From: a virus
Lineage: Duplodnaviria; Caudoviricetes
Length of the DNA: 37,973 bases
Virus record (IMG/VR): IMGVR_UViG_3300017902_000170
Span: 1-37,973 of that record
Reading direction: 5' to 3' (one strand)
Every line of letters starts with the position of its first letter. The stretch's first letter is position 1. A model generated the notes under the pieces. It was not told the origin of the DNA, searched no databases, and saw nothing but the letters and a program-made list of their open reading frames with translations. Made by a program: the position numbers and the translations under genes. Shown here in pieces: positions 169 through 36,430 of the stretch.

Positions 169-838
169 ATTTTAATTTTAGAGAGATTAGTATCCTTCTA
201 ATATTGTTCACGCTTATCACGTTGAAACGGAGAATATCTCCCGCTACAATCGTGGATGTCCAATTATTTAGGACATCATCAAAGTATTTATCAGTATTGG
301 TAAGTTGAACTCTATTTCCACCAGTCATGGTAGAAAAATTAGGATAATCAGCAAAAGTTGTTTTCTCTATTTCAAATGTAATATCACCAGTCTGATCAGA
401 CAAAACTCTGATCTGTTCTATTACACCAGTAACATCTATGGTTAACTTACCTTTGTCTCCAGTTTGCATTGGGAGACTTCCACTATCGATGACATAGTTG
501 ACAGTTCGTGTCAAATCTGCGGCTGCAGCTAAAGCAATAATAACTATGTCATCTGAGTTTGCTGGAGCAGTTGTAAACACAATCTGATCCCCAGATATAT
601 TGTAATCGTTTGATGGATCTAAGAAAAGACCATTTTTAGTTACAATAAGTTGTTGGTTGTTGTTAGGAGAGTAGGGTGCTCCTTGATCATTTAATGAAAA
701 TGTAGTTTCAGACCCATCTTGTGCTGGAGTCTTTCCTATCAATATGTTCCCATACTGAATAGACTTAGAGGGAATCTCATAGTCTACACCGACATTGTAT
801 CTGCCAGGTTCGTTAAGGGTTACTAAGTAATCTGCCAT
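164..838 (-). CDS. Putative virion structural protein (224 aa)
   Basis: In the late operon, coupled to the upstream gene by a TAATG overlap. Contains the 'NG..L.P..DY.ISG..I.FTTAP' beta-sandwich repeat common in cyanophage fibre/baseplate proteins. Confidence 0.7.
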   Translation of the reverse strand: MADYLVTLNEPGRYNVGVDYEIPSKSIQYGNILIGKTPAQDGSETTFSLNDQGAPYSPNNNQQLIVTKNGLFLDPSNDYNISGDQIVFTTAPANSDDIVIIALAAAADLTRTVNYVIDSGSLPMQTGDKGKLTIDVTGVIEQIRVLSDQTGDITFEIEKTTFADYPNFSTMTGGNRVQLTNTDKYFDDVLNNWTSTIVAGDILRFNVISVNNIRRILISLKLKL

Positions 839-1170
839 TATGTTACGCCTGGAATTACGAGAACATTTCCTTGTATTGGTCTAGTCTTGTACGCATTAGG
901 CGATGTCAAAACCAGATCATACACATATCTTCCTCCTTCTATTGTAGATGTGACAGTCGATGCCAACGCTACTTTTATCTGTCCATTAACTCTATTAGGA
1001 AATGACACAACAAAAGAATTGAACTTTGTTGCCTCTGGATGTTTCTTTATTTTAGCTTCTCCAGTGTATCCAGTTAAATTTAAAGAACTTTGATCTTCAT
1101 TTCTAACAGTAAAAGTTGCCTCAAAATCTACACCTTGATCTAAAACTAAATTGATGTTCCTAGCTGTCAT
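838..1170 (-). CDS. Small beta-sandwich virion/baseplate-associated protein (110 aa)
   Basis: NLVLDQGVDF...GRYVYDLVL...G.V.V.PGVT pattern typical of small myovirus structural proteins; late promoter upstream. Confidence 0.7.
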   Translation of the reverse strand: MTARNINLVLDQGVDFEATFTVRNEDQSSLNLTGYTGEAKIKKHPEATKFNSFVVSFPNRVNGQIKVALASTVTSTIEGGRYVYDLVLTSPNAYKTRPIQGNVLVIPGVT

Positions 1171-1189
1171 CTTTCAAGAGGAGTTTTAG

Positions 1190-1399
1190 TTATTTATCTA
1201 ATTTACTTAAAATTAGCTTCATCATATCCTTGAGTTCATCAACGTCATCCTTTAGTTTATCCATTTCACTTACCTCTTTCATTTTATTTTCTTTCATTTT
1301 GAGGTAGTTATTGTATGCAGCATCATTACAATTCAATATAGCACCACTCTCTTCATCTCTATAAAGAGAATTACTATCTTTCACTTTTACTTTTTTCAT
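1190..1399 (-). CDS. Small coiled-coil protein (69 aa) coupled to the DUF4815 gene
   Basis: TAATG overlap at 1399; LYRD..SGAILN motif followed by a heptad-rich C-terminus. Confidence 0.75.
   Translation of the reverse strand: MKKVKVKDSNSLYRDEESGAILNCNDAAYNNYLKMKENKMKEVSEMDKLKDDVDELKDMMKLILSKLDK
1191..1198 (-). promoter_or_regulatory. Late promoter variant GATAAATA
   Basis: NATAAATA embedded in the last codons (GAT AAA TAA) of the 69-aa gene, about 20 nt upstream of the ATG at 1170. Confidence 0.6.
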
Positions 1400-4300
1400 T
1401 AGATAGATGCGATAGCTCTTAGATCACGGATCTTTGGAACATAAGCAAAGTTAGTTCCCGACATGATAATTTTAATCTGGAATCCGTTAAACTGTGGTAG
1501 ATCTTTTATATTGAACTCATATTCTTTATAGTCTTGATCTGTCTGAGATGCTAAGATTCTTCTGTCTGGTTTACCATTATTCTTAGCTGGATCAATTACA
1601 ACACCATTAGAATCTAGGTTTTCAAAGCCAGGGAATAGTTCAAATAATTGATACTGTGGTGGAGCATCAATTCTGAATACTCTGTATAATACTCTAATAT
1701 CATTAGTAGAGTGTCTGTAAGCATCAAACATAACCTTCAAACCATCTGCAGCCTTCTCAAGGGATACTACTTTAGAAAGATAAATTGCTGCACTTGGATC
1801 AGCGTCAAGGGAGTTGACTCTGGAATCTGTAGCATAATCTGTAATTTTAGAGTTAAGTCTGTCCATAACAGTGACCATATTGACTCTATCCAAGTCAATC
1901 ATAGGACTTACTTTTGTATCTTGTGTAGTTAAGAAAGCTTGTAGTGTAAATGATTTTCTGCCAGGGAAATCAACCAACTTATCTAATTCATTTGTTTTAG
2001 ATGCAATAATTCTAGGAGTGGGTAGAACATTATTGCTGTTTAATGATATACTCTCAAATCCCTGATCCACAAATCCACTTAAGTTTCCATCAGGACTATT
2101 ACCACTAAATGTTCTCATTCTACCTGATATATCTGTTCCATCAGGAAGTAAAGTAGAAAAATTAGGTCTAACAATGTTGAACGCAATATTTTGTGTTGCC
2201 ATTGGCCCATATGGTGTTCCAACTTGTACATACTGTTGATCATAACTACCACCAGACTTAGTTTCTCTAAAGAACAATTCTGGTAATCCACTAGCATTTC
2301 CAGTTGATCTGTCTAGTCCACGGCTAGAAATACCAACCTTCAACCAGTAGTGGTCTACATCAACTGGATACTTAGAAGTGTCTGTGTCAGACATCTTATG
2401 AGATGTATTAATTCTTCTCAAAGATACGCTATTCATTTCATACTTGAATATCTTATCATTGATGTTATAGTCACCAGCTTTGGTTTCATCCATAGATCTT
2501 GTGATATTGTTCAATGATGAAGATGAAGTGGTAACACCAGTGTATCTAATGATCTCATTTCCAATTTTTGCATAGCCTGGGTTTGAAGCATTAACTTCTG
2601 CACCCTCAAACGAAGTAAATATACCAACAGCTGTTACTGTGATATCACTTGTACTTGAAGAATCTACCGTAGCAGTTAGTTTCTCAGGTTTAACATCACC
2701 CTCTACTCCAGAAAGAATAACTTTATCTAAAGGAGAGTACATACCATGATTATTATGTCTTACACGGAAATGTAATCCATCGTTGATGTCATTAAGATAT
2801 CTAATAGCTCCACCACTTACAACACTGGTTCCGCCTCCACCAACATATACAATAGCAGATGATGAGTCAACTTTAGGTTTACCCTGAATATTGTTCAGGA
2901 CTAATGTATTGAAGGCACTTATAACACCAACATTATTAGGAATACTTAATTCAAGATTCTTACCAAAACCACCAGTGTTTGTTGCAGATACTGTAAGTAC
3001 ATCACCAGCTGAATATCCAGTTCCACCAATAGCGACTGTTGCTGCAACACCTACTCCACCATTTACAGTTAAGTTTACAGTTGCACCAGTTCCTCTTCCA
3101 AATTTTGATATTAAAGGTATATTGGAGTAAACAACAGATGTTGTAGCAAATCCAGTACCAGAATTTGTGATTGTTAGATTACTACCGATACCGATTGCAC
3201 CAAGAAGTTTATTCAAGTTCGCCTTGAAGTTTGGATTACTCTGTTGATAGATTGTAGTTCCTTCTGTTAAACCAGTTTGTTCAGCAGTTGTCAAACTTTT
3301 TGCTAATCCTACAACAGCGTTGTATGAAACCATGTCGATTGGATTAGGAACAAGAGAAACAATCTGTCTGTTTCCAATATCTAAATCAGGATTATAGAAA
3401 TTAACACTACCAGAATTTGCAGTAAATTCCGCTCTGTATAAATTGAACTTCAAGTCTTCTAACTGACTAGGATCCCATGTAGCACCGTTCTGTGATTTGA
3501 ATAGTGAACCAAGTAGAGGTTGTTGAGATACAATAATCTTTTCAGAATCTGCAGCATTGACTGTGGTGATATCTTCTTCACCCATCCTAGAGATGTACAC
3601 AAAATATTCGTTAGATGCAGAAAGAAGAACAAGAGCAAACTCTCCTCCACCTTCACAATAAACAGGTGATGGGAATGTAAATGTTGTAGCTTTAGATCCA
3701 TCATCAGATAAGACAACTTCATCAGGGTCAAGAATACACTCACCAAATGGTAATATTTCTTGAGTAGGTAAACCAGTCTGTAGTGTTCTTACTTGAAGTG
3801 TAACAGGCAATTCATTTGTGTCCTTCGCTGAGAAATAGACATCACACTTAGTTAAGTAGACTCCATTAACATCAGGAACTTCAAATGACTGTGCAAGAGG
3901 GTCAACCCATCTTGTTTGTCGAGTTGTTCTTTGATTAAATGCAACGTTTACTACTTCTCTTGTATCTGTGCTTGATATTTGTCTAGAATCAGATTGTGGT
4001 ATTCTTTGAACATCTGCGTTTCTTGTTCTGAGAGTAGATGCCTCAACTGTCTGTAAAGTTCCAGAAGCAGTGAAATTAGCTGAACCTTCACTATCTGTGA
4101 ATCCAGAGATAGTTTGATTAGTAGAACTGGATGATAATGTAAACGTCTTAGTACCAGTGTTGAATGTAGGTGCAGAAGGGACTGTTGGATCGGGTAAGAA
4201 TAGAGAACCTATAAGAACTCCTGCCTTATCTGTAATAAGTCTGATATTGGATACTGTTGCAATAGCACCACTGGATTGACCAATTAACTTCATTCCAGTA

Positions 4301-7300
4301 GTAATGTATCCATAGAATCCAGATGCAGCTTGAAGTTCTAAGGATGCAGTATCAACGTTTAGAATTGTAGTTGTTGACGAATATGTTGATGATATAGCAG
4401 AAGATGGTTCGTATGGATTTTGTTTATATGTTTGTGTTGGTGCATTGTATGGGCCATACTTATGGTTCTGATTGGCCAATCTAAATCTAATTGCATCATT
4501 ATTTGAGTTAGGACGACTTCCTTCGACAATTTCACCAGCACCAAACGTACCAGATACCATTGTGACTTCAACAAGTTTAGGCACAACAAATCTTGCCATG
4601 TCAATGTTATCGAAGAATGGATATAATCTTGTATTTGGTTTCAATCTTCTACAAACAAATTCAATGTTTCTAGATCTCATTGTAGCGACAACTTCTGTGT
4701 TAACTACTTTATCGCCAAGACTTGTAGTGTCAAATCTCTCACCAACTCTAAATTGAATACCCTCTCTAGTTTGATTGCTTCTAGTAACTGTAGTCTCAGT
4801 TCTAAATACCTCTCTTCTGTCCAAGAATTGTGTAGTTGTAGTGATTGGAATACCACCTCTACGAGGGCCTACAAATGGGCCACGTTTTTGAACTCTTCTT
4901 GAAAGAACTGTTGATTGTGTTTCAACCCTAGTAGCAGGGCCTAATGTTGAACTTCTTCCTGTCCATGTAGTTTCCCAACCACCCCAGTCAACAGGTGAAA
5001 GACCAGTATTACTATCAGCGCCAGTCATTCCCATCATTGAATTGAAACTACCTTCAATATCGTATGTTGCAGAAGTTCTTCTAGTTTCAATCCATGTATC
5101 AGTTGCAGGGTTTAGTTCAACTTGTCCAATCCAGTTTACAACAGCAAATGGGTTTACGTTTACAATTCTAGTAGCAAATTTGTTTTCTAGGAAAATAGTG
5201 TCATCATAATTCAAACATACAACATCACCAACTCTTCTAACATTAGAATCACCTAAGTCGCCTGCAAATCTATAGTCCGCTGATGGATTAGATGATGTTG
5301 CGGCACCAACGATAGCTTCTGATCCAAGTAATAAATCAATAGAAGTTGTATAGTGCTGTGGTCTTAATCTTCCTTCAGTAGAGTCAATAGATGCTTTAAA
5401 TTGTCTATTTGTGACATCACCAGAAGTCACAGACTTAAAGTTGTCAACGAAGAATCCAGACTTAAATCTATCAAGGTTAGTCTGTGGATCACGAAGAGAC
5501 ATATTAGTTGTTTCTACTTCAAGTAAAGACAAAGATGTATAGTATTCAATATTCTTAACTCTATCCTCAATAGTAGCGATATCCTTCATTCGGAATCGTT
5601 TGTGTTTAGCGATAGTTAATTTTACATCATCTGTGTTATAAACATAAGGAGGCATCTCAATGGTAGCCACTTCTAATGCATTGTCTATCGTGTTTGGTAG
5701 TTTTGGATAGACTGCTGGTGCTCCCTTTAATATTGAGAAAATACCTTCTTTACTTAAGAAAAGTTTGTCTATTCTGCCAAGGTAGTAATCATATGAAATA
5801 TTGAATGACTTATCCTGTGCAATAATATGTGATGTGGAGGATGTACCAGACTCAAATTGTCTAGCAAAGAACTCGCCAGGAGATCTACTTGCAACAGCAC
5901 TAGTTACTCTTGGTCTTAAATCAATAATATCAGAAGCATATATTCCACCCACAGTAGGTAAACTGTTCTTATATAAACTAGAGTCATATGAATTTACAGT
6001 TACAAAGTCGCCTGGGTCTGCAGCATCAATTACATAGTTATTGTAAATGACTGTAATTCTTCTTGTGGGAGCTTCAGTTCCTTGTTTTCTAACGATATAA
6101 GAGAAGTCAACATAATCCATTTCTTGGCCAGGATCAAACTCAAAGTCATTCTGAATATCCTTATCGCCAGGAATAAATGTCTGAACTACACCTTGTACAT
6201 TTGTTTCTTCAAAAGTAACTTCTTCGCCAACTTCAAATGTATTTTCATTCTGGTAAACGAAATTAACTTCATTAGATCCATTTGTTGATACAAATACAGC
6301 AGATGCACCAGAGTTTTTACCAATTATATTCTCACCTCGTAGAGCATTAAGAATATTGGTATTCAAACCAGTAAGTTGGAGAATAGGTAACTGAGGGTCA
6401 TCAGTAGTTGAAGATTCTAAGATAGCAAGAACATAAGCAACATCACAAACGCCTAAGGATATTCTCTTGTCTTGCACTCGATTACCATAGACTCCATCAT
6501 AAGTTAATCCATCATTTAACTTCATTAATCCAGTGCCTGACTGGGTTTTTGCGGACTTATTAACTGTGTAAGTTGTTGCTCTGTTTAATACTTTTGATTT
6601 TGGTTTTACATTTACTTTCTTCCAAGTAACTGTTAAAACTGCAGCACCAGAGGCAACAGATAATCCAGATAAGGTTACTGTTCTTCCACTAACTGTAAGT
6701 TTTTGATCTGTTAAGTTTTCTACAACACCAGTTGTTTTGAATGACAAGTTATAATCTTCTTCATCAAATGGTTCTAAGTTTAAATCAGCATCTGTTTCTA
6801 ATGTTCCACTAAAGGCATTATTAGCAACAGTGATCGAATATGACTTTCTAAATATAAGATTCGCACCATTTGTGTCTACGCTCGCAACATTAGGTCTAGT
6901 CAATTCACTGAATAAAAATGCAGTAGAGTTATTCTTAACTTCTAAAGTAACCTTGAATAAGTCATTTACATTAACATCAGCAGATGGTAATGCACCTGAG
7001 TTGACGTTAGTAACATCAGGGACAGCTTCGAGAGTAATATTCGTAGCAGTCTGAGCCGTGACACGGTTGAATGTTGGAACATTATTACCAGATACACTGT
7101 ATTGAATGATGTCTCCAGTTTTAATTCCAGCACTACCAAAGTTTGCACTAGGAGAAGTGATTGTAGATGCACCACCAGATTTTGCACTTACAGTGAATTG
7201 TGTTGCAATCGGAGCAATCAGATGTCCTAATCCTAAAACAGGGTCAGCACTAAACTTGTAATTAGTAGGATCATTTCCTACTAACTGTTTAATATCATCA

Positions 7301-8919: not shown

Positions 8920-8925
8920 TTGCTT

Positions 8926-10521: not shown

Positions 10522-10544
10522 TTTAAAAAAACGTTTTTTTCTTT

Positions 10545-10552
10545 TATTTAGT
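10545..10552 (-). promoter_or_regulatory. Late promoter variant ACTAAATA upstream of gp8, followed by an A7-CG-T7 palindrome (10525-10540)
   Basis: CTAAATA variant about 24 nt upstream of the ATG; the leader closely matches that at 20594-20622. Confidence 0.6.
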
Positions 10553-10554
10553 GG

Positions 10555-19570: not shown

Positions 19571-20593
19571 TCAACTAATGTTAATAGAACTTGAACAATA
19601 AACTCTGGTAACACCAGTGCCGTCTCTTATGATACTGAATGTTAGAATGTCATCATTTGCCGTTGATGGTGGCGGATTACCTCCAACCCATTTTACTCCT
19701 GTTGCGATAGTAGCTCCATTTACAGTACATGGATCACCATAAGTATATCCAACTCCAGCATTGATGATAAGTGTTGCTGTGGTTGCCTTGCTGTTTTCAC
19801 CACTTACGTTTGTAAATGCCCATGAAGTAATTGTTGTTGTTGCAACTCCAACGACTACAGATCCTTGTGAAACATCAATAGTAAATGTGCCGCCTGCACT
19901 TACTTGCATAATATCACTATAGTTTCCTACAACCTTCTCTGTGATATCAGAATTGAAGTTGACTTGATCCATTAAGGTGCTTGCACCACCGACTAGAACG
20001 TCACCTTGTACGTCTAATCTACATGTAGGAGCAGTAGAACCGATGCCAGTATATGCTTCGTTGGTAACTACAAATGACTTGTTATCTGATATTGCAGCAT
20101 CGGATACTCGCAATCCATATCCATTTCCTTTTGCAACTGCCCAAATACTTGGGTTTTCGTTTGAGAATGATGCGACTTCTAGTTGAGATGTGGGTAAAGA
20201 TGTTCCAATGCCGACCATACCATCAGCTTTGATTCTGAACATTGTTGTTGCAGTTCCAACCTCAATAGGGCCTTCTGCAATCGCACCAGGCTGTTGAATT
20301 GTAACTTTACCTATATCTCCATAGGATGTTGTTACAACACCAGTTGTATTGATATTAATATCACTTGAAACACCAGCAGCAGTTCCAGAAAAAGTTGATG
20401 TTGATGCAATACCAGCATTTGTTGAGTAACCAGCTGTAGTGGCGAAGGAAACAAAGCTTACAAGATTAGTACCATCTCCGAAAGTATCATATATCTCGTT
20501 AAAATTATTGTTAATCTTTATAGTTCCTGCCAACAGGGTATCACCTGTGCCGTCATTCGGAGCAGAACCAGTACTAATCCCTTGTTTAGACAT
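19571..20593 (-). CDS. Short fibre/baseplate protein (340 aa) with a T4 gp9/gp10-like N-terminus
   Basis: MSKQGISTGSAPNDGTGDTLLAGTIKINNNFNEIY resembles the DGTGD.LR.G..KIN.NF.E.Y N-terminal motif of gp9/gp10. Two fibre-type repeats: VGIGTSLPTSQLEV and TGIGSTAPTCRLDV. Confidence 0.75.
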   Translation of the reverse strand: MSKQGISTGSAPNDGTGDTLLAGTIKINNNFNEIYDTFGDGTNLVSFVSFATTAGYSTNAGIASTSTFSGTAAGVSSDININTTGVVTTSYGDIGKVTIQQPGAIAEGPIEVGTATTMFRIKADGMVGIGTSLPTSQLEVASFSNENPSIWAVAKGNGYGLRVSDAAISDNKSFVVTNEAYTGIGSTAPTCRLDVQGDVLVGGASTLMDQVNFNSDITEKVVGNYSDIMQVSAGGTFTIDVSQGSVVVGVATTTITSWAFTNVSGENSKATTATLIINAGVGYTYGDPCTVNGATIATGVKWVGGNPPPSTANDDILTFSIIRDGTGVTRVYCSSSINIS

Positions 20594-20614
20594 TACTTAA
20601 AAACGTTTTTTCTT

Positions 20615-20622
20615 TATTTATA
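20615..20622 (-). promoter_or_regulatory. T4-type late promoter TATAAATA
   Basis: Exact consensus in the 30-bp gap, 21 nt upstream of the ATG at 20593. Confidence 0.8.
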
Positions 20623-20623
20623 G

Positions 20624-29600: not shown

Positions 29601-29641
29601 TCTATTAAATGAGATATCTTTACTCTTTTAATATCCGTCAT
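20624..29641 (-). CDS. gp7: Baseplate wedge initiator gp7-like (N-terminal part, 3005 aa) with a discontinuous YHYH-like domain
   Basis: Directly follows gp6. N-terminal SQIPE...F..FL.QYY and KDFY.SKGT..S..ILFKLLYG; D.FYFQKFSYSIKS...W...V..IVHPSG motif; HSPILGYAYDGNPIYGPYG. Confidence 0.8.
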   Translation of the reverse strand: MTDIKRVKISHLIESQIPEYLSQESPLFKDFLIQYYESQEHQSGMSDLANNLAEYRKIGAFNQETLTVSTELTNACYAGDRTLTVTSTTGWPDTYGLLKIDNEVITYTSKTDTQFLGCARGFSGIDQISREDAAEFANFAETNAAVHIAGSTVINLSNLFLQTFFTKFKTEFLPGFENRTFQPGTSVTNILTRAKDFYMSKGTDASYQILFKLLYGEEIELIKPIEKTLTASANVYFKTKHVLVENLFGGQPLQTIGNFLYQDVAGIGTVSASIYNVEYRPINQTDFYEISLDSTSFDGNFTVPGKTKALEITPEDSETLVVDSTVGFGQSGTLLVKPREGANFLNLRYTDKTVNQFLGVTGISTSLVFGADILENKLAYAYAGFGQTSLLQFRLVNVIDEVDTSQSTNMQVGDSLKLLSFGRDLSDNAQFNNWIYNVPSSHTISDINQVNVNTFRISIFDSCVFYVDEILKIKNDLGQEQDITVKLIEYDSTNVAQVYANTVVVQTSGTIPTNPTVITKTVTKASHNNNYFAGVDNFPVGIQNSYLDKQEKFYYVASSGLPNYPIFATDNKVWVKTSSIEVVDGFGTPLLGGGFTYTIQSYDPAFDPAAGTSLLAHNYVTGDRIYWDNTTNSGINTGIYFVTAINQTDFYLSYSGSDVFAKKYIAVRTGTPGQYIYKSGWENKTLKNQKILRKYPFVKEKELFDDPNKRDVNNRPVGLMANGVELFPPTVFDEQIFHGDITSITVTNPGSGYDVIKGPPLIIKDQQGFDALGHANVVGSFKEVKLVSPGIGYQEKPKITVEGGNGSGAVLESNLVRGRIVANFKADGSSVNTTDESISFEDRHNFETGEGIIYDARGNTPIVNVVSGSAYYVAPVNEKRIKLHNTPEDAKAGINTVNIGNISFGFHRFTTVKSKNTITKIYVKNAGSGYSNRKVIIPARPVNGDIQSGISTSDDYILAYDHHFNNGEIVEYSTDGTVANGLSTSTQYAVKVIDPNRFKLCDVGVSSQRNFTNYDKNKTVVIRGLGSGKHTIKYPPISVKIESLSGLAATTVIKPEIDPIVLGSIDNVYLEQGGIGYGCTNIMDFHRRPDVGIATVTSLALLKPIIIGGSIIGVQILANGNGYREDSDIIISSPTGSFGDVRPIITDNKITGVQILDGGIGYGVSDTTMILQNRGKSAKFIGNVREWKINQVQKNENIINVEDSILTKPSTNPEFQLQTIGMYPPQKLRYQLGDNIDSGNLETPNAFHSPILGYAYDGNPIYGPYGYQNAVGGAIRRLSSGYILDTSVKAGLRPPGFAFGYFVNDYVFDNSGDLDIHGGRYCVTPQYPDGTYAYFYSVDVDSSGVAKPKFPYMVGGQFKDTPIEENFVTFFNQDIDIASRDLVRNISPYYLSYGNSDYELIDDVKDVLKQEFEVIKTKSAGISSVTIFSRGDGYKIDDPLELDNKGTNGAGANIVVSELLGKQVSSVEIGINTFTGTTLRLDKRNIVGVTTVPHGIADGETVILSGIDTSQFTEFNGAQKVQVISRKVGLSTFVDTVTNTGVSTHIFVTDTRGFTPSDHIGVGTETMIVTGIDTNFSRLFVNRENFVGAAITHQSGIDNVILKPDKFLFPVGTSTISQFTFENYLTYFNPLETVGVGSTGTHYTITSTGLGTQAIQTVENRFVPQQRIYLKNHKFFTGQKLVYNMGIGGTSLVWAKVAAGATSGVGTEVLPNGEVYAVNFDKDYIGLTTVAFSTAADAIWFYNVASNIGFAHSLSTAYPQVTTKVERFFGEVGCSSAHELVAGDIIKIDALPKSSESTIIRYDPVLAKVTTKRVGFTYTSFSADLTQINIGDQDLQSGDKVVYYDNGNTINGLINNETYFVLREDPDFIKLCKYKSDVFDSNPVSISTVTTASANNLSFIAKINPPLNFTTGNIITFDVSDPSLTDMRLDFFEDINFNDRLDVQGTNAGGFNITRDGIPGNANATVTLNTELFWPSKTFYDLTSVVPSDTRKTFGSSDVEVTGRNNITFRDIILKNEHSVLIKDDKTFTFNLKEKPLESQKFVSRIGVSTITYSTTSLSARGPIFKTKINFPGKGYTVLPRVIGFASTQGQDAIVKVSSPEIGQIDTIERIKDGFDYPTDPTLLPFLAVPAIVDISGIARIDEIQVIDGGRRYNQPPTLAVRGNSNVSIAAHVSGGAVDSVEIIQNAFEFKEPLSIITTNNSNGYDIDNITHSGTTVTAELLLDAQFNIPVTTGYASTDVKLPFAIGDRVFVEGCRIKPASLQSGEGNFNSSDYDFSFYTVTGVNTTNATVQFSMADAPGISTVTLGTYDDDFTLGSIVNFNDMAKFNMTIINDAKYLSGEKVTSTKFEGFVAENGWNVNISQLRLRDTIGTLLPGDTLFGQVSELKGNVRDVNRFSVPTTLGVTRDKVSKNDLNFGILNDFSQRLSDNFYFQKFSYSIKSNLPYNTWKESVKSIVHPSGFLEFSDLVIESNPKNDANTLDLVSVGIAKSNNMRVQAVDTTVDLILNIDNEMYMGKRDNFAMVTEDDALDDGSVQRIFFPEGRPIKSFIMNKTNKVLNIDDISSGFTGEHDRTGTLVGSRQFQLKTNGNPAFKKSYNAASSTDVNLPLNIISIQNHDFQTGQVVNLDTQGGSKIGIAITSYTTGTKDIVMAAVTSGVGGSSLFENGYNVQIPGPVTGTAVTQNPPGAVFTLYGFGSADGGLPGFTTTGSGARFQVKFDFDQGTGQCISTAVVLISGGEGYIVGDTVGIAGTYLGGATPANNLLFPVTKTTGSRVGIQTTYTNVPSTNNGSGSGAIFNITRDSNLDISNVGVVTGGTGYASTNVITIAGTYIGGATPTNNIELTPVECGTNIMPNELFVQKVDDVNFRVSGLSTSLPFEFTGLGTGTHLLKVQDPNKQALILIDNIIQTPITNKLLTVEVADAISASGENITVGAGIGSLSKGDILKVDDEFIKVKQIGEATFAQAKQAVANKVVDNNFYYDTKRANSNVLNVDTTTATMDDNPPY

Positions 29642-31516
29642 TTATCTGGTATAGATTGTTTCGCTAGCGTAACTAGAAGTTGTGACGTATGCTGTAGCAG
29701 ATGTGTTTTCACCAGAAGATACAACGTCTGGTAATGCCCTTACTGTGCTATCTGGAACACTTAATTGTAAGTATAAGTCTTTCAAGGCAATAACATCATT
29801 GGAATCAGGTATTGCTTCCACTTCAATGACTCCACTTGTTAGTGAAGTCCCTGTTATATTTACCACATCCAAATTAATCTCTCCGTGAACATAGTCCACT
29901 GTACCAGCATCATTCTTAACAACTAATGGAAGGTTATTTACGAGTTTAAAGAATACTAATTTTCCAACAGTTGTTCCAGCAGTAGGAATGTCACCCAAAT
30001 ACAAAGTTCCGTCAATACCACTGACCGTAAATCCTGTAGATCTTACGCCATATCCATTTGGTTGGTCGTAAAACGCATTTCCGTAGCAAAGTTCATAAGT
30101 TGCGAAAGTATTGATCTCAGGTACAATATCTCTTCGCATCTTAACTCTTGTAATGTTAGATGTAACACCTCTTGCAGCATCATCAATCAATCCTACGACT
30201 TTACTATACTTAAATCTACCACCAAAAGCATTAATATCTGATGAATTAGAATAAGTTGTTAGAGTCTTGGTTACGGCAGTGATAAGTTCAGCTGAATCAC
30301 TTGTAGCGTTGGTATTATAGTAAACCGAAGTATCAACTTCAACGTAAAGATATTTTAGATCAATGATTTCGGGTTTGATACCAGCAATACTGTATTGTTT
30401 TAGCTGTCTAGAGATATCATCTTTTGTAATTTGTGATAAGAAAGAACCGTTCTTTGGTTTTATAGAAATGAACACCTTACCATACTCAGGCGGGTCTAAT
30501 TCTTCTCCTCCGTAGGCGGTCACAGATTCAACGTTAGGGTAAACGAAGGGAATTATACCTGTGTAGTCATTCGCAGTCACGGCACGGTACTGGGAACTGT
30601 AGATACGAGGTGCTAGGTATTTTATACTCGATACATCTTCAATTCCGTCGCCATTTTCGGATTTTTGTTGAGTTGTTAAAACTGAAATTCCAGAAGTTAT
30701 GGTTGTATCGGTATCATCTCTTAAAATACCAACAAATGAGAAATTTCTAGCGTTATTTCCTAATCTTCCGTTAGTTACAATGTAAGTAACGGTAACTATC
30801 GCTCCAGCAGGAGGTTTTTTACCAATAATTCCGTCTCCAAACAAAATTTCATACTGCTCATCTTCAATTTCTTGAATTAGGAACAATTTAGAGGTCGAAT
30901 CAACTTGTAAAATGTTATTATAGAGCGAATATATCTCATTTGTCGTAGATGACACTGTAACACGGATAGAAGTTGTGTCAATATTCGCATTTGGAAGAAT
31001 AAATCTTTGATTTGGTTGTGAATAATCGATCTGAAATGTTTTTTCGAGATATATTCCTTCGTAAATCTTTAAATTATCAAAAGTAGCGATATTATTTGTA
31101 CCACTTGTCGCTACAAAGTCGTCTGGAATGGAAAAAATGTAAGAACTTCCCTGCTGAACACCTAATGCAACTTGTCCAGCTTTCAAAGTTACGATTTTTG
31201 TGTCATTTGTACCCAAGTCTACGCTAAAATTCACCACAGCTTGTGCAGATCTTGATGATCTGGGTACATAACCAATATTTCTTGCTAGTGATACCACGTT
31301 TTCACGCAATGTAGCACTGTCAAGGAAACATTCATTGACTGCCATGTTAGTATTGTAAGCAGTAATGTATGAGTTATACGCTAAAAGGTCAATTAGAGTC
31401 GAAAAGTTAGATCCTTCAAAGTCAAAATCAGCGAAATCACTGTTTACACGAAGGTAATCTTTAATTTGTGACCTAAGAGATGCAAAATCTAGGTTTGTAA
31501 ACTGGTTAAATGACAT
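29642..31516 (-). CDS. gp6: Baseplate wedge subunit gp6
   Basis: FTNLDF..L...IKDYLR..SDF.DFDFEGSN, FLDSATLRENVVSLARNIGY.P.S, FGDGIIGKK, Q.RAVTA.DY and YGKVFISIKP. Confidence 0.95.
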   Translation of the reverse strand: MSFNQFTNLDFASLRSQIKDYLRVNSDFADFDFEGSNFSTLIDLLAYNSYITAYNTNMAVNECFLDSATLRENVVSLARNIGYVPRSSRSAQAVVNFSVDLGTNDTKIVTLKAGQVALGVQQGSSYIFSIPDDFVATSGTNNIATFDNLKIYEGIYLEKTFQIDYSQPNQRFILPNANIDTTSIRVTVSSTTNEIYSLYNNILQVDSTSKLFLIQEIEDEQYEILFGDGIIGKKPPAGAIVTVTYIVTNGRLGNNARNFSFVGILRDDTDTTITSGISVLTTQQKSENGDGIEDVSSIKYLAPRIYSSQYRAVTANDYTGIIPFVYPNVESVTAYGGEELDPPEYGKVFISIKPKNGSFLSQITKDDISRQLKQYSIAGIKPEIIDLKYLYVEVDTSVYYNTNATSDSAELITAVTKTLTTYSNSSDINAFGGRFKYSKVVGLIDDAARGVTSNITRVKMRRDIVPEINTFATYELCYGNAFYDQPNGYGVRSTGFTVSGIDGTLYLGDIPTAGTTVGKLVFFKLVNNLPLVVKNDAGTVDYVHGEINLDVVNITGTSLTSGVIEVEAIPDSNDVIALKDLYLQLSVPDSTVRALPDVVSSGENTSATAYVTTSSYASETIYTR

Positions 31517-31932
31517 TATATCCTAGTTGATTGAAGAATAAATTCTATATTTTGTCTGGGAATAGCTAATCCAACGATATCATAGTTAATAGTTACTGTT
31601 AATTCATTAGTATCAAGCGGATATATCACTCTAACATCAACACGCCTGATTCTAGGTTCAAAGTTTTCAAGTAAAAGTCGTATATCATCCTCTAAAACTT
31701 GAGCATTATCAGGATCTGCCTGTTCAAAGAGAGAATCTTCGACAGCACTACCTAATAAGTTGTTATAAAAACGTTCACCAACTCTTGTTCTTACCAAATT
31801 TGTCACAGCTCGTTTGATCGCATCCTCATTTTCAAACACACCGATGTCATCCGTCACAGGATGGCGGGTAAATGTAAGACTTATATCCTTGAAAGGCGTA
31901 CTTTGGAGGTTGCGTTCGTCAACTTTAGCCAT
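31516..31932 (-). CDS. gp25: Baseplate wedge subunit gp25
   Basis: FKDISL.F..HPVT.D, AIKRAV.NLV.T..GERF...LGS and FEPRI motifs; immediately upstream of gp6. Confidence 0.93.
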   Translation of the reverse strand: MAKVDERNLQSTPFKDISLTFTRHPVTDDIGVFENEDAIKRAVTNLVRTRVGERFYNNLLGSAVEDSLFEQADPDNAQVLEDDIRLLLENFEPRIRRVDVRVIYPLDTNELTVTINYDIVGLAIPRQNIEFILQSTRI

Positions 31933-32054
31933 TACTCATTCAAATTTTGTTTTCTTTTTTCGTCATTGGCATCATCACCAACAACTTCACGCAAAAGATC
32001 GTCTGCTACGTCCTCTTCTGGTCGAGGATTAATGTATTTTTTATCGTCTGCCAT
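31932..32054 (-). CDS. Small acidic protein, 40 aa (MADDKKYINPRPEEDVADDLLREVVGDDANDEKRKQNLNE); not in the ORF track
   Basis: Hand-translated; TAATG overlap with gp25; late promoter variant about 22 nt upstream. Confidence 0.7.
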   Translation of the reverse strand: MADDKKYINPRPEEDVADDLLREVVGDDANDEKRKQNLNE

Positions 32055-32076
32055 AACAAATATACTAATTCAAATC

Positions 32077-32084
32077 TATTTAGA
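32077..32084 (-). promoter_or_regulatory. Late promoter variant TCTAAATA heading the gp25-gp6-gp7 operon
   Basis: CTAAATA directly after a terminator and before the ATG at 32054. Confidence 0.6.
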
Positions 32085-32087
32085 CAC

Positions 32088-32113
32088 AAAAAAAGACCCT
32101 TTGAGGGGTCTTT
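32088..32113 (-). terminator. Rho-independent terminator
   Basis: Minus strand reads AAAGACCC-CTCAAA-GGGTCTTTTTTT, a stem followed by U7. Confidence 0.8.
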
Positions 32114-32132
32114 GAGGTTTTTTTGATTGATT

Positions 32133-32288
32133 TTAACCAGCAGCTAATGGAGATTGCTTGTCATTTGTGTTTGCGGCAGCTTTTTTTCGTGCTTGAGCAC
32201 TCACATCATACTGTCCTTTAACACTTCCACTAGCAAAACCAGCACTTTCTACGTTATGGGGAGCTAATTTTGGATCTGAATCTGCCAT
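32133..32288 (-). CDS. Small protein, 51 aa (MADSDPKLAPHNVESAGFASGSVKGQYDVSAQARKKAAANTNDKQSPLAAG); not in the ORF track
   Basis: Hand-translated; AAAGGT SD-like sequence, late promoter upstream and terminator downstream. Confidence 0.75.
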   Translation of the reverse strand: MADSDPKLAPHNVESAGFASGSVKGQYDVSAQARKKAAANTNDKQSPLAAG

Positions 32289-32305
32289 TTTTGACCTTTT
32301 TCTTT

Positions 32306-32491
32306 TTATTTATCAATTTGAGCTCGTAATCTGTCGGGTGAGATCCCTTCATTCATGTAAAAATTGAGTCTGACCCTTGCCTGTTCCCTATCAAGACCTA
32401 CATCTTGCTTCGGATCGTTGACACACCAGCCTGATGTGCCTAATTCTACGACCTTGTACTTTACATTTTCCATTGGTTGTGGTGTTGTCAT
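32306..32491 (-). CDS. Hypothetical protein (61 aa)
   Basis: TAATG coupling to the glycosyltransferase stop. Confidence 0.7.
   Translation of the reverse strand: MTTPQPMENVKYKVVELGTSGWCVNDPKQDVGLDREQARVRLNFYMNEGISPDRLRAQIDK
32307..32314 (-). promoter_or_regulatory. Late promoter variant GATAAATA
   Basis: Encoded by the final GAT AAA TAA codons of the 61-aa gene, 18 nt upstream of the ATG at 32288. Confidence 0.65.
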
Positions 32492-33249
32492 TAGATAATC
32501 CTCGTTTTTTCATGTCCAACACGGATTTTTGGATCAATCCAAATTTCCATACCCGCTTCTTTAGCGTCTAAACAGAAAGATACGTCTTCTCCACACATAT
32601 CTTGTACATCTCCAGACTCAAAGACTTGCATTTTGGGAGCAAACCAAGGATATTTCATCTCTTTATGCTCGAATACACCATTTTTAATCAACAACCAACC
32701 AAATCCAGTGTAATCAACAGTGAAAGGCTTGCGTCTACGAGAGATTGACTCGATAGTTTCGTGATTCATCACTCCACCATTCTTAGCAAAGTCCTCTTCT
32801 TCTAGCCAATGTGCAACAGATGTTGTTTTTCCGTCCTCTGTGCAGTACCAACCACCAGCAATATCCTTTTGCATCCATACTAAACGATAGAATTTCTCTG
32901 TATCAAATACAATATCAGAGTCTATCCATAATTGATAGTCATATTTTAGTTTTCCATCCCAAGGAATCTGATCTGGGCCTCTTAATACGTTAGCACCAAG
33001 ACACTTGCACCTTGCAAAGTTAACCATTGATGAATAATCTTGTGAGATCTGAATACTCGATCCATTCTGCACGAGGTCAAAGCATAGTTGAACGAAGTTC
33101 TTTAAAAAGATATAAGATACTCCTCTTCCTGGCAGACAGAAAACTATTGCTTTACCTTTAGCTAATGCCTTTGCCTTTTCTAAATCAAAGTCGTCTTCGA
33201 CCTTTTTAGTTTTGGGGGCATTTGCTTTTACTGTAAATCCTTTTGCCAT
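32491..33249 (-). CDS. GT-A fold (family 2-like) glycosyltransferase
   Basis: NFARCKC, LWIDSDIVF (DxD motif), TGFGWLLIK..VFE, GEDVSFC and VGHEK motifs. Confidence 0.8.
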   Translation of the reverse strand: MAKGFTVKANAPKTKKVEDDFDLEKAKALAKGKAIVFCLPGRGVSYIFLKNFVQLCFDLVQNGSSIQISQDYSSMVNFARCKCLGANVLRGPDQIPWDGKLKYDYQLWIDSDIVFDTEKFYRLVWMQKDIAGGWYCTEDGKTTSVAHWLEEEDFAKNGGVMNHETIESISRRRKPFTVDYTGFGWLLIKNGVFEHKEMKYPWFAPKMQVFESGDVQDMCGEDVSFCLDAKEAGMEIWIDPKIRVGHEKTRII

Positions 33250-33272
33250 AACATGTTGTAATTACATTCTTA

Positions 33273-33301
33273 AGTATACCACGGTCAAACCAATTTGTCC
33301 A
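33273..33301 (-). promoter_or_regulatory. Sigma70-type early promoter TGGACA-N17-TATACT with extended -10 TG
   Basis: 17-bp spacer, TGgTATACT, about 23 nt upstream of the glycosyltransferase ATG. Confidence 0.65.
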
Positions 33302-33326
33302 TAGTGTTATATTATATAGTCTTTTT

Positions 33327-33989
33327 TTATGAGCCCTTTTTGAGAAACTCCTGACTATTACTGGGGCCTAACAACATTCCCTGATCGTAAATATCCGTGA
33401 CAACGTTGCTGTTGATTACGATGTCACCAGCTAACGATAATCTTTTTTCATCAGTTTGGAAATGGGGGTAAACCGCATGATACAAGTCACTAGGGAATAG
33501 TAACATGTGTCCTTCATTATATTGCTTCTCTAACTTCCAGTTTACTTTACGAGTTCTACCTATGATATCTGAGTACGTTAATATAAAATCCCCTGCGTCT
33601 GGGTGCATTGCATCTTTTACAGATTGTTCAACATTTGCAACAGCTGGTAACTTTAACCAAATGACAAATGACCAGATAGCATCATGATTATGTAATGCTT
33701 GATATTCTCCTTTACCAGTATAATTTGCCCAGAACTTTTGAAAGGTCAAATCATGTATATGTGTAGTCTTAAGTTTCTCAGGAAAACCGTAGTCCGTAAC
33801 ATACTCTTGTATGATGGGATTTAATACTTCTTTTTGAAATCTATTATCATCATCAATTAACATCCATTGTTGTTTAGCATCATCAGGTTCATACTTCTCT
33901 ACCAGATGATGTAAATGATCTAAGACATTTTTATCCAGAGTGACATCTAGAACAGCATAGTTCGGTAATTCAATTTTCTTCGTGTTCAT
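33327..33989 (-). CDS. Putative 2OG-Fe(II) oxygenase (TIGR02466 / 2OG-FeII_Oxy_5-like)
   Basis: WAN....GEYQALHNH...SFVIWL and EG.MLLFPS.L.H.VYP.....RLSLAGD: HxH...H triad plus the 2OG-binding R-x-S. Confidence 0.8.
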   Translation of the reverse strand: MNTKKIELPNYAVLDVTLDKNVLDHLHHLVEKYEPDDAKQQWMLIDDDNRFQKEVLNPIIQEYVTDYGFPEKLKTTHIHDLTFQKFWANYTGKGEYQALHNHDAIWSFVIWLKLPAVANVEQSVKDAMHPDAGDFILTYSDIIGRTRKVNWKLEKQYNEGHMLLFPSDLYHAVYPHFQTDEKRLSLAGDIVINSNVVTDIYDQGMLLGPSNSQEFLKKGS

Positions 33990-34140
33990 TCTTAATCACC
34001 GCTATTTCTTCTGTGCGAAGTTCATCATCAGGATAATAATTGAAAAATGCTTTTATGTGTTGTAGTTTATCTTTGACTTCCCTACCAGGCACGTTCTCCG
34101 CAATGAGATAGCCTCCGATTGTTATGTTATAGGTACTCAT
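33970..34140 (-). CDS. Hypothetical protein, 56 aa (MSTYNITIGGYLIAENVPGREV...); not in the ORF track
   Basis: Hand-translated; fills the gap and overlaps both neighbours. Confidence 0.6.
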   Translation of the reverse strand: MSTYNITIGGYLIAENVPGREVKDKLQHIKAFFNYYPDDELRTEEIAVIKNEHEEN

Positions 34141-34294
34141 CTTCCCAAGTTGCCATCATGTCTTCTAGATCCTTTCTTATGTCAGGATGATACATGAGAT
34201 GATTATCATGCTCTAATCGAAAAGAGATTGATTCGTAGATGTATTCTAGCTCCTTGATGTCGAGCTCTATATTCATTGTTTCAGAAATGTTCAT
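34127..34294 (-). CDS. Hypothetical acidic protein, 55 aa (MNISETMNIELDIKELEYIYESISFRL...); not in the ORF track
   Basis: Hand-translated; fills the gap between oxygenase genes. Confidence 0.6.
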   Translation of the reverse strand: MNISETMNIELDIKELEYIYESISFRLEHDNHLMYHPDIRKDLEDMMATWEDEYL

Positions 34295-34305
34295 TATAAA
34301 CTTAT

Positions 34306-34986
34306 CTATACATTTTGTACTTTTGGATCAGGGAACCATTTATTAGTACGATCTATAAGTTCCTGACTATTCAATACAATATCTCCAGCGATTGATATTC
34401 GCCATTCAGTTGTAGTGAAGTGTGGGTACACAATATGATTTATATCGCTTGGAAAGAAGACTATTTTACCTTCCATACTTTCATTCAGTTTGTAGTTCTG
34501 TTTTTTCAGTTGGCCACATGTATCAGGATACACTAATACAAAGTCCCCTGCTTCTGGTCTGAAACCAGGCTGTACCATACTTTCCACCTCACTATCAAAC
34601 GGAATCTTCAACCATACTACAAAGGTAAAGATACCTTGATGATCGTGAATACTTTGATAGTCTCCCTCATGACTGGCACGACACCAGAAACGACTAAATG
34701 CAAGTCCATGATCATGTGTTGATTTGATCTTAAAAGGGCAACCGTATGTATCAAAATACTTTTGAGTCATAGGCATCAGAACAGCATTTGCAAAGCGTTG
34801 TTCGTCATCAGCCAATGACCATTGTTTATCGTTTACATCTTCAATACTTAATAAACGATTACCTTCCCACTTCGACTTCGGGGCATACTTATGAATCAGT
34901 TTCCACACATAGTCCAGATCTTCTTGTTCTAACTGGCCTTCAATCACTCCATAGTTGGGTAGATCGACAGCATTACAATCTTTCAC
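34306..34986 (-). CDS. Putative 2OG-Fe(II) oxygenase, paralog of 33327-33989
   Basis: GDYQSIHDH.GIFTFVVWL and EGKIVFFPSDINHIVYP.....RISIAGD. Confidence 0.8.
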   Translation of the reverse strand: MKDCNAVDLPNYGVIEGQLEQEDLDYVWKLIHKYAPKSKWEGNRLLSIEDVNDKQWSLADDEQRFANAVLMPMTQKYFDTYGCPFKIKSTHDHGLAFSRFWCRASHEGDYQSIHDHQGIFTFVVWLKIPFDSEVESMVQPGFRPEAGDFVLVYPDTCGQLKKQNYKLNESMEGKIVFFPSDINHIVYPHFTTTEWRISIAGDIVLNSQELIDRTNKWFPDPKVQNV

Positions 34987-35485
34987 GATACCTCTTTCTT
35001 CCTAATACCACTTTGTCCATCATAGCTTCAGTATATCTTCCTATGTAGTATCCCTTGGCCTCCAGTTGTTTTGAAGTATCGTCCAACGCGCTGATTTTTT
35101 GTATCATCACAATGGTAAACATCTCATCCAACTTTGTCAACAACCATAAATCCTTGCCCTGTTGATTCAGAAACGTGTTGAGTCCATCGACGCCGCCAGA
35201 CATTTGATCTGGATTAATATTATTAGCATTTGACTTTGCAGCCACTATCACGATATCATTACTTCCATCAAAGGCTTCACACTCTCTTGAAACCACCTCC
35301 CAGTAGTCGTACGCGCTGAAATAGTCAAAGACCTTGACCAACTTCATACGGCCATCATCCTTTGCCTTCTTACTAAAGGGACAACGAGGCCCTGTGTAAC
35401 CTCCCTTGTTCTCTCCGTCGGGTAACTGTAACCAATCAATCCAATCAGCAGTATACTGCTCTAAATGATCTAAGACATGTGCCAC
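34973..35485 (-). CDS. Hypothetical protein with a W..WL..P...G..CPF motif (about 170 aa; likely GTG start at 35485)
   Basis: The ORF track starts at 35512, but a TAGTG overlap with the upstream stop favours 35485. Confidence 0.65.
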   Translation of the reverse strand: MAHVLDHLEQYTADWIDWLQLPDGENKGGYTGPRCPFSKKAKDDGRMKLVKVFDYFSAYDYWEVVSRECEAFDGSNDIVIVAAKSNANNINPDQMSGGVDGLNTFLNQQGKDLWLLTKLDEMFTIVMIQKISALDDTSKQLEAKGYYIGRYTEAMMDKVVLGRKRYRERL

Positions 35486-35685
35486 TAATAACTTTGATCC
35501 TCCCTGATACATTCATCGCCAATACAGACAGAGAACGACAAGCTATCAGTATGATAAGACCTGTAGATCCTGCCCCATATGACATTGAACTCTTCTTGAT
35601 TCAAATTTTTAAACAAACACTTATCCTCAAAATAAATGTGATAGGATTTTACTCCTTGATCCGTTGTGGTACTTGAATTGTCCAT
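35485..35685 (-). CDS. Hypothetical protein (66 aa)
   Basis: Co-oriented and tightly packed; YHIYFEDKCLFKNL core. Confidence 0.65.
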   Translation of the reverse strand: MDNSSTTTDQGVKSYHIYFEDKCLFKNLNQEEFNVIWGRIYRSYHTDSLSFSVCIGDECIREDQSY

Positions 35686-35972
35686 GAACCTCCTTTTAAC
35701 TCTACCAGCTTGAACTTTTTCTTATTGCGTTCAATTTCTAACAACCACGCTTCATTCATTGTACTGCCATATTCAACAGGATTCATACCAACGAAATCTA
35801 GTATAGCAGTATCTACCATATGATAGAGAGTATCCCAAGTGAGAGTGTATTGTAATGCAGACGCTATCTGTTCAACCTCATACTCTGAGAGGTTCTGATT
35901 CAAGACGCCTAATCTACATTCGACTAACTCATTCAAGTCAATCTCTATCTTGCTATTCTTATATATTGCCAT
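35649..35972 (-). CDS. Hypothetical protein (107 aa), paralog of 35993-36277
   Basis: ORF plus visible alignment with the neighbouring protein. Confidence 0.75.
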   Translation of the reverse strand: MAIYKNSKIEIDLNELVECRLGVLNQNLSEYEVEQIASALQYTLTWDTLYHMVDTAILDFVGMNPVEYGSTMNEAWLLEIERNKKKFKLVELKGGSWTIQVPQRIKE

Positions 35973-35992
35973 AATGAGTTCTTTACAGTTTC

Positions 35993-36277
35993 TTAATCAA
36001 ATGATATACCTTCTTCATCAGGAAGGTCTAATAGTTTTTCTTCTACCCAATGATCTTTGTTATCAATACCAGCTGCTTCAACATACTGCATGATATGTTT
36101 ATCCACTTGCTTGTAGATAGGATGTAAGTCTATATCCATACGAATATCATGTGCAATCTCTGCCACTTGCTTCTCAGTTAAACAATGATCAGGATGAAGA
36201 AGATCACAACAAGGGATCCTCTTCTCTATCAGCTGATTAATGTTTATACGAATCTCATAGTCGTTATAAACCGCCAT
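35993..36277 (-). CDS. Hypothetical protein (94 aa), paralog of 35649-35972
   Basis: ORF with TAATG coupling to the upstream peptide. Confidence 0.75.
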   Translation of the reverse strand: MAVYNDYEIRININQLIEKRIPCCDLLHPDHCLTEKQVAEIAHDIRMDIDLHPIYKQVDKHIMQYVEAAGIDNKDHWVEEKLLDLPDEEGISFD

Positions 36278-36375
36278 TAAAAGAACCTACCCTTAGATGC
36301 AAAGTTCACGATGGCAAATGATGAGCCTATACAAAAGGTCATCAATACGAGTGTTAATACAAATCCTTCAATCAT
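36277..36375 (-). CDS. Single-pass membrane micropeptide, 32 aa (MIEGFVLTLVLMTFCIGSSFAIVNFASKGRFF); not in the ORF track
   Basis: First ORF after a strong promoter; TAATG overlap; about 22 hydrophobic residues followed by a basic tail. Confidence 0.65.
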   Translation of the reverse strand: MIEGFVLTLVLMTFCIGSSFAIVNFASKGRFF

Positions 36376-36401
36376 TGTCTGTTTTATGTGTTTACCTTTA
36401 T

Positions 36402-36430
36402 AGTATAACACAAACCTGGCCCAGAGTCAA
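36402..36430 (-). promoter_or_regulatory. Sigma70-type early promoter TTGACT-N17-TATACT with extended -10
   Basis: Near-consensus hexamers, 17-bp spacer, TGtTATACT. Confidence 0.8.

Follow-up and report, generated by a model that had tools for sequence, protein, structure and literature searches.

Genes and placement of the window

The virus record IMGVR_UViG_3300017902_000170 (Duplodnaviria; Caudoviricetes), analysed over its whole length of 37,973 nucleotides and called the window here, comes from the baseplate region of a cyanophage of the S-SSM7 type (Lipsvirus); its genes are those of a T4-like baseplate and virion. The window retains the sequence CCWGG (W, A or T) only in particular flanking contexts, and this footprint, together with a DUF4338/DruA-like GNAT of related phages that may be responsible for it, is the subject of this work. 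S-SSM7 is a Synechococcus phage of the genus Lipsvirus, Kyanoviridae; its complete genome of 232,878 bases was covered in full, and G005, a 99%-complete relative, was used alongside it. The window is not an assembly artefact, since the stretch 20000–29000 recurs in 20 of 24 listed public runs from 15 studies, with 0.90–0.98 of its words found (five of these rows may be the source itself).

CCWGG sites in the window and in relatives

An exact count gives 46 CCWGG sites in the window, each with a G at position −1 or a C at position +1, so that they read GCCWGG or CCWGGC; in every one the outer C is part of G-C-C on one strand or both. The sequence-only reading of this DNA had reported the same pattern from about 45 sites counted by eye, and the 13 coordinates it quoted all match a site to within 1 base. 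Its estimate that base composition would flank about a third of the sites agrees with the computed probability per site (p=0.34), from which the probability of 46 out of 46 is about 2e-22. In the codon-shuffled null that it had proposed as a check, here applied to 15 coding genes, HCCWGGD (H, not G; D, not C) was observed 0 times against 38.7 ± 3.8 expected (200 synonymous-codon shuffles; lowest 27), which excludes a near-expected frequency, while flanked sites numbered 44 against 9.3 expected. Total coding CCWGG, also 44, is near the shuffle expectation of 48. The footprint is real.

All 44 coding sites are Pro-Gly dipeptides (CCW GGN). Because Pro-Gly forces CCNGG, CCWGG cannot be removed synonymously except into CCGG, itself absent (0) from the window. 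Synonymous codons meet the constraint, as the sequence-only reading had also held: the Gly codon is GGC in 32 of the 44, compared with 102 of 1018 Gly codons overall, and in the other 12 the preceding codon ends in G. At the 42 sites flanked on one side, the base ahead of the protecting G is T in 10, C in 14, A in 11 and G in 7, and 24 of the 44 coding sites are overlapped only by Y-GCC (Y, C or T).

Table 1. Coordinates of features in the window
Feature	Position	Strand	Remark
Span of the 46 CCWGG sites	804..36419	.	exact count and shuffle null
Coding genes with 44 of the 46 sites	164..35972	-	T4-like baseplate and virion genes, Kyanoviridae (Lipsvirus-like)
CCWGG outside the 15 listed genes	34085..34089	.	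as CCWGGC
CCWGG outside the 15 listed genes	36415..36419	.	as CCWGGC
gp6 baseplate wedge gene, used for placement	29642..31516	-	85.7% identity to Synechococcus phage S-SSM7, 84% to G005

The same rule is seen in relatives: 10 of the 206 CCWGG sites of S-SSM7 are unflanked, as are 7 of the 215 in G005 and 10 of the 737 in 80 IMG/VR relatives, which overlap one another and are not independent. HCCWGGD avoidance is absent from 25 other T4-like marine phage genomes, covered over 60–200 kb each (observed/expected (O/E) 0.77–1.2), the nearest outgroup Sf-FS3 included, and the CCWGG rule is confined to the Lipsvirus clade.

The protective context at other sites

Site counts were taken per genome as observed/expected, with unflanked sites set against G-flanked ones, i.e. 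those overlapped by GCY. An unbiased flank scan of S-SSM7 and G005 returned ten rows, nine of which were a G before CC or CT, in CTCGAG, CTGCAG, CCATGG and CCWGG variants. Unflanked CTGCAG stood at 0/43 in S-SSM7, 0/46 in G005 and 0/7 in the window, and flanked CTGCAG at 24/34, 29/38 and 5/6, respectively, with 5/5 of those in the window overlapping GCT. For CTCGAG, the unflanked and flanked forms were at 0/12 versus 5/8 in S-SSM7 and 0/17 versus 2/5 in G005; for CCATGG, at 2/24 versus 15/10 and 0/24 versus 14/9. CCAN5TGG was at 1/41 versus 12/14 in S-SSM7 and only partly avoided in G005 (unflanked 11/38). GAATGC is followed by Y at 23/23 sites in S-SSM7, 19/19 in the relative G001, 8/8 in the window, 32/32 in G005 and 78/78 in the 80 overlapping relatives, GAATGCR being found 0 times against 39–43 expected while GAATGCY is kept.

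CCGG, TTCGAA, GGTACC, YACGTR and others are purged outright in Lipsviruses, and the window has 0 CCGG and, in coding DNA, 0 TTCGAA and YACGTR. Sites in GCA or GCG context also stay purged in S-SSM7 (GTGCAC 0/22, TGCGCA 0/13, ATGCAT 0/54), a result whose reading assumes that the nucleases involved would be blocked at those Cs.

The protective context is GCY, with all four bases allowed before the G. RGCY (R, A or G) as the motif was ruled out by the occurrence of all four bases before GCC, and a generic GpC by the purge of GAATGCR, GTGCAC, TGCGCA and ATGCAT. Of the earlier proposal that each site overlaps a GC dinucleotide, implying a GpC- or GCC-directed modification, the overlap rule stood (46/46) and the breadth did not, GCA and GCG sites being lost. 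The accompanying idea, that CCWGG is selected against except where it overlaps a cytosine that follows a G and is likely modified, has gained support: the rescue recurs at five unrelated sites, and the same kind of footprint is present in cyanophage S-B43, whose CmoX/CmoY system is described as making 5-glycylcarboxymethyl-cytosine at GC, with the modification proven (PMC12783734). The base pair that the rescued sites have in common would be the middle C:G of GCY, which is the outer C of CCWGG.

A few further biases were noted. The asymmetric words WCCTGC, HCCTGAA and HCCCGT are strongly depleted in S-SSM7 (L081–L085) and the window, with their G-preceded forms at expectation, and CCCTGC is enriched in the same DNA; further host nucleases possibly underlie the depletion of these asymmetric motifs. 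Nearly all of the sampled Kyanoviridae are poor in RGCY (O/E 0.12–0.7), the exceptions being S-CAM7 (0.93), S-CAM9 and S-PRM1 (0.87). The Pelagibacter phage HTVC008M has CTGCAG only as R-GCT (4/4), and it encodes a second, distant DUF4338 paralog at 86527–86916.

GGWCC as a second protector

Unflanked CCWGG sites overlap GGWCC at 10/10 positions in S-SSM7, 3/3 in G001 and 6/7 in G005, as do 10/10 exceptions among the loci of the 80 relatives (four distinct contexts). In S-SSM7, unflanked CCATGG (3/21) and unflanked CCAN5TGG (1/14) also overlap GGWCC, by a by-eye count. The window's subclade has GGWCC purged and no CCWGG exception; in the window itself GGWCC numbers 0 and GGSCC (S, C or G) 24, the latter enriched because 21/21 Gly-Pro dipeptides use GGC or GGG, which avoids GGWCC. 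These exceptions exclude a nuclease that simply recognises HCCWGGD and show that the deciding factor is overlap with a motif open to modification. Three GGNCC states occur in Lipsvirus, as judged by comparing the window with L081–L085 and L038–L047: GGWCC purged and GGSCC kept (the window, with DSL-LC02 sharing its state), GGSCC purged and GGWCC kept (S-SSM7), and both present.

Search for modification genes

The complete relatives have no recognisable C5-, N4/N6- or Dam-type methyltransferase. PF00145 (C5-methyltransferase) had 0 matches in complete S-SSM7, with CmoX of S-B43 matching as positive control; PF02086 and PF01555 had 0 in complete S-SSM7 and 0 in G005; and seven cyanophage methyltransferases, CmoX among them, gave no tblastn match below E 0.3 in either genome. 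SSSM7_129 and SSSM7_257, considered as DNA methyltransferases, were set aside, as they resemble HemK-like and sugar O-methyltransferases and fall below cut-off. Out of about 319 proteins of S-SSM7, 84 were scanned against Pfam and 61 against PHROGs with no TET/JBP match, no search having been aimed at TET/JBP directly. The GpC C5-methyltransferase or TET system envisaged by the sequence-only reading therefore has no PF00145 counterpart in S-SSM7. PF23859 (DpdA) had no match in S-SSM7 or G005, nor in the control phage CAjan, and no deazaguanine genes are annotated in S-SSM7.

A DUF4338/DruA-like GNAT as candidate

Two GNAT-type genes are present in S-SSM7, namely SSSM7_282, a Mom-family gene beside tRNA genes, and SSSM7_173, a DUF4338/DruA-like gene between gp44 and gp62. 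SSSM7_282 is the only PF25680 match in the genome; SSSM7_173 (380 aa) has PF14236 as its sole Pfam match and does not match PF25680. DUF4338 is called a GNAT in PMC10853773, and the family is large, with 6,706 homologs among 7,998 candidates scored. The SSSM7_173 family is found in 15 of the 27 genomes of a phage panel. In Druantia type I defence, DruA goes together with a DruB–E helicase module; the annotated neighbours of the phage gene are clamp-loader and regA genes in most of nine phage records. A predicted model of a 91%-identical homolog (predicted local distance difference test (pLDDT) 91) has a GNAT fold, and a fold search with it matched Mom (8bv8) at Z 9.4 (root-mean-square deviation 3.9, 167 aligned) within a list filled by GNATs; a FemA-like fold (Z 8.4), first in a model of pLDDT 66, was not upheld in this better model. 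A phmmer search of the GNAT against the PDB returned no match. Contigs with the window's signature (HCCWGGD 0, GGWCC 0, GGSCC kept), e.g. L201 and L202, carry the GNAT.

HCCWGGD avoidance does not track the GNAT, as 13 of the 15 GNAT-positive panel genomes keep CCWGG freely; the purge would thus reflect a pressure that hosts exert on Lipsvirus, and it is the rescue alone that bears on the enzyme.

As for the Mom-family gene, it directly adjoins a tRNA cluster (Ile, Thr, Arg, Leu) at L085:16423-17395 in S-SSM7 and at G005:229061-230029. A tRNA-Gly gene is present in S-SSM7, and none was found by ARAGORN in G005. Two IMG/VR loci with a Mom-family gene, from a virus lineage of higher GC content (L341 and L342; 0.43–0.44), have unflanked CCWGG at 0/6 and 0/12 and few GGWCC, and keep CCGG freely.

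A slot shared with a D12 methyltransferase

Among 80 gp44 loci, 20 do not span the gp44–gp62 slot and were left uncalled; 23 have the GNAT, none of these with a D12 methyltransferase, and in 34 of the 37 GNAT-less loci a D12 methyltransferase lies between gp44 and gp62. The GNAT and the M.CbeI-like methyltransferase are mutually exclusive in this slot, no sampled locus having both. In the panel, a PF02086 gene is present in 9 of 12 GNAT-negative genomes. The only PDB match of the D12 protein of P-SSM2 is 7m6b (E 6e-41), i.e. M.CbeI, described as an N4-cytosine methyltransferase for the inner C of GGCC (PMC8616854, PMC3425538), and by this similarity the cyanophage PF02086 ‘Dam’ next to gp44 is probably an RGCY/GGCC N4-cytosine methyltransferase rather than a GATC adenine methyltransferase. 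A homolog search with the D12 methyltransferase gave no informative names among the matches. Single-molecule real-time sequencing of marine myoviruses is described as finding RGCY, CCWGG and GGWCC motifs of N4-methylcytosine (m4C) type (PMC8919816). The PF02086 gene next to gp44 (L351:19160-19996 in P-SSM2; 42 loci of L443–L522) lies below the TIGR00571 dam cut-off.

The two gene types differ in the sites that survive. In D12 phages, CCATGG occurs only as R-GCC (3/3 in P-SSM2, 5/5 in P-SSM4), purged sites are kept only as R-GCY (3/57, versus 0/72 for Y-GCY), and CCGG is never kept. Phages with distant GNATs retain R-GCY at 5/23 and Y-GCY at 0/26, those with GNATs closer to Lipsvirus keep both, and Y-GCY rescue is found only in GNAT and CmoX phages. 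For CCGG survivors, the test covered the 18 of 27 panel genomes that purge CCGG, the other nine being left out (HTVC008M, S-SM2, S-SRM01, S-B68, Sf-CH8, S-SKS1, S-CAM7, Bellamy and ACG-2014f). Survivors overlapped by GCC occur in 9 of 10 GNAT-positive genomes against 1 of 7 CCGG-purging genomes negative for both GNAT and CmoX (Fisher p 0.004, uncorrected for kinship). All CCGG sites overlap GCC in the CmoX phage S-B43 (6/6), and likewise in G006 (18/18), where the GNAT is present and PF25680 absent. Together, the CCGG survivor test and the shared slot point to SSSM7_173.

Proposed explanation and alternatives

The phage has purged many restriction-type sites, and in nearly all that it retains the first C belongs to G-C-Y. 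We propose that this cytosine is masked by a predicted N4-acylation from the phage DUF4338/DruA-like GNAT, so that host nucleases would be blocked; Pro-Gly CCNGG, being unavoidable, would have been given G or C flanks through synonymous codons and so brought into the protected form. The proposal supposes that hosts carry enzymes cutting CCWGG, CTGCAG, CCATGG, CTCGAG and GAATGC, that the modification falls on the middle C:G pair of GCY, and there on the C rather than the partner G, that the GNAT makes it at N4, by analogy with Mom acting at N6 of adenine, and that the GNAT gene is also part of the genome from which the window comes. The ancestral target may have been RGCY, relaxed to GCY on the branch to Lipsvirus, and in the S-SSM7 subclade a second modification, at GGWCC, would protect the same C. 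On the simplest reading, the GNAT would have replaced an (R)GCY N4-methyltransferase and would act on the same amine. We regard it as highly probable that modified GCY cytosines shield sites from host nucleases, whereas the case for the DUF4338 GNAT as the enzyme is evenly balanced, and a product that is an undescribed N4-acyl cytosine is suggested only tentatively. The wider idea, in which the DUF4338/DruA-like GNATs of marine T4-like phages would be a ‘cytosine Mom’ that N4-acylates C at (R)GCY, yields an undescribed base and has taken the place of an m4C methyltransferase at one locus, is put forward as a conjecture.

Several observations weigh against this proposal. The candidate gene lies outside the 38-kb window, with no contig to join the two. 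Its fold names no substrate, Mom being tied with generic acetyltransferases (top Z 9.6), and Mom is not among the Foldseek matches listed for the GNAT model. A genuine member of the Mom family is encoded in S-SSM7 and G005 as well. Despite its GNAT, S-SSM7 keeps no GCCGG (0/56), the window has 0 and G005 only 5, and in short IMG/VR loci, mostly with distant GNATs, the survivor comparison is weak and unsupportive (2/11 versus 1/17). Genome counts are not independent, as related phages share both gene and codon history, and 25 of the 27 panel genomes were sampled in part, at 60–200 kb each. Finally, none of the phage enzymes is a candidate for GGWCC protection, so that host methyltransferases may have a part in it.

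That last point leads to the possibility that host methyltransferases lay the GCY (and GGWCC) marks during infection and that the phage only adapted its codons. The lack of a recognisable methyltransferase in complete Lipsvirus genomes and of a phage candidate for GGWCC fits this, as do the GG-m4C-C methyltransferases that cyanobacteria are described as carrying (10.64898/2026.10.20.760421); we nevertheless think it unlikely, since phages recorded on the same host, WH7803, differ, with S-T4, S-SCSM2R and S-PRM1 keeping GCC-overlapped CCGG and S-SCSM1 and S-PM2 none (isolation hosts may not be natural hosts), and since viral motifs are described as seldom recurring in prokaryotic metagenome-assembled genomes (PMC8919816). 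Another phage enzyme, be it the Mom-family SSSM7_282, an unrecognised gene or a modifier of the partner G (e.g. deazaguanine at RGC), seems to us a rather unlikely source: sequence data fix the C:G pair and not the strand, and S-SSM7, G001 and G005 all have the Mom-family gene, whose closest IMG/VR homologs lie in contigs obeying the CCWGG rule, yet G006 has 18/18 CCGG overlapping GCC without PF25680, DSL-LC03 has Mom and no clear rescue, and Mu Mom is described as acting on A in SASNY (PMC13219725), which misfits GCCWGGA sites. Momylation of the Mu type, at SASNY, is at odds with the contexts that are allowed. No deazaguanine genes are annotated in S-SSM7, but the PF23859 search drew a blank in its control phage too, and a deazaguanine may still be involved.

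If instead the GNAT modified another base or motif, the GCY footprint could be the remnant of a lost RGCY/GCY methyltransferase, with which the uninformative fold and the missing GCCGG rescue of S-SSM7 would agree. This is improbable, as the rule has no exception in the window and very few in the 80 diverse relatives (10 in 737 sites), arguing for ongoing selection, and Y-GCY rescue occurs in GNAT and CmoX phages and not in D12 phages (0/72). A GpC-specific C5-methyltransferase, CmoX or TET system in the unsequenced part of the window's genome could be imagined, the window being a fragment and S-B43, in which CmoX modifies GC cytosines (PMC12783734), showing GCC rescue of CCGG; it is very improbable, because complete S-SSM7 obeys the same rule without PF00145, G005 has no CmoX tblastn match, GCA and GCG contexts are not rescued, and YGCY is not eroded (O/E 1.08–1.09), contrary to what deamination of 5-methylcytosine would be expected to cause. 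As for a nuclease of HCCWGGD specificity acting without any modification, the alternative offered by the sequence-only reading, it would describe the window alone (0/46) and is hardly credible: HCCWGGD is tolerated when it overlaps GGWCC (10/10, 3/3 and 6/7), including all 10 unflanked sites of S-SSM7, and the five other sites sharing the G-flank rule would each need an odd nuclease of their own.

Comparison with known systems

In the way it would act, the system behind the footprint resembles Mom or the RGCY m4C methyltransferases that sister phages carry, yet it belongs to neither group, nor to that of C5-methyltransferases and CmoX. Mu Mom (PF25680, PDB 8bv8) is described as a Gly-tRNA-dependent GNAT acylating N6 of adenine in SASNY, and TmcA as acetylating N4 of cytosine in tRNA (both PMC13219725). 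The predicted GNAT fold of the candidate (Z 9.4, tied with generic GNATs) resembles Mom, and so would its proposed activity, a base acylation that follows replication, is only loosely specific for sequence and shields the phage DNA against many nucleases; the candidate differs in its family (PF14236, 380 aa, no PF25680) and in its inferred target, C in GCY as opposed to A in SASNY. With M.CbeI and DmtB, alpha-class m4C methyltransferases (GG-m4C-C; PDB 7M6B; PMC3425538, PMC8616854), and with the RGCY motifs of PMC8919816, the system would share its predicted target C, after G and before Y, and the likeness extends to the genomic slot in sister cyanophages and to the R-GCC rescue of CCATGG in P-SSM2 and P-SSM4. 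Lipsvirus is different, however, in lacking the PF02086 family (0 in S-SSM7 and G005) and in a rescue that reaches Y-GCY (24 of 44 coding CCWGG in the window) and is not limited to R-GCY, and most GNAT phages differ in that CCGG is rescued. CmoX likewise concerns cytosine modification in GC context in a cyanophage, with the same kind of CCGG overlap footprint; the C5-methyltransferase family is, however, absent from S-SSM7 and was not found in G005, and the S-B43 system is described as acting on all GC (PMC12783734), whereas GCA and GCG are unprotected in Lipsvirus.

Avoidance of restriction sites occurs in phage genomes, and the absolute loss of CCGG, TTCGAA, GGTACC, YACGTR and others is of this kind; here, in addition, the sites that survive spell out a modification motif and direct attention to an enzyme. 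Surviving restriction sites can reveal the specificity of a DNA-modifying enzyme from sequence alone, S-B43 serving as positive control. If the proposal is correct, an abundant, uncharacterised GNAT family of ocean phages would gain a target base and motif, DUF4338/DruA a lead to its function, and the known phage DNA bases a cytosine-N4 acylation. No work on this footprint, or on what DUF4338 acts upon, came up in our literature search, from which subscription papers were largely missing. The prediction is directly testable, since S-SSM7 exists in culture and commercial enzymes (PstI, NcoI, XhoI, BsmI, PflMI, EcoRII and MspI) are available for the motifs.

Among the genes of the window itself, those at 32491–33249, 33327–33989 and 34306–34986 encode a conserved protein of unknown function that weakly matches a glycosyltransferase PHROG (E 2e-5) and two 2-oxoglutarate-Fe(II) oxygenases (PF13759).

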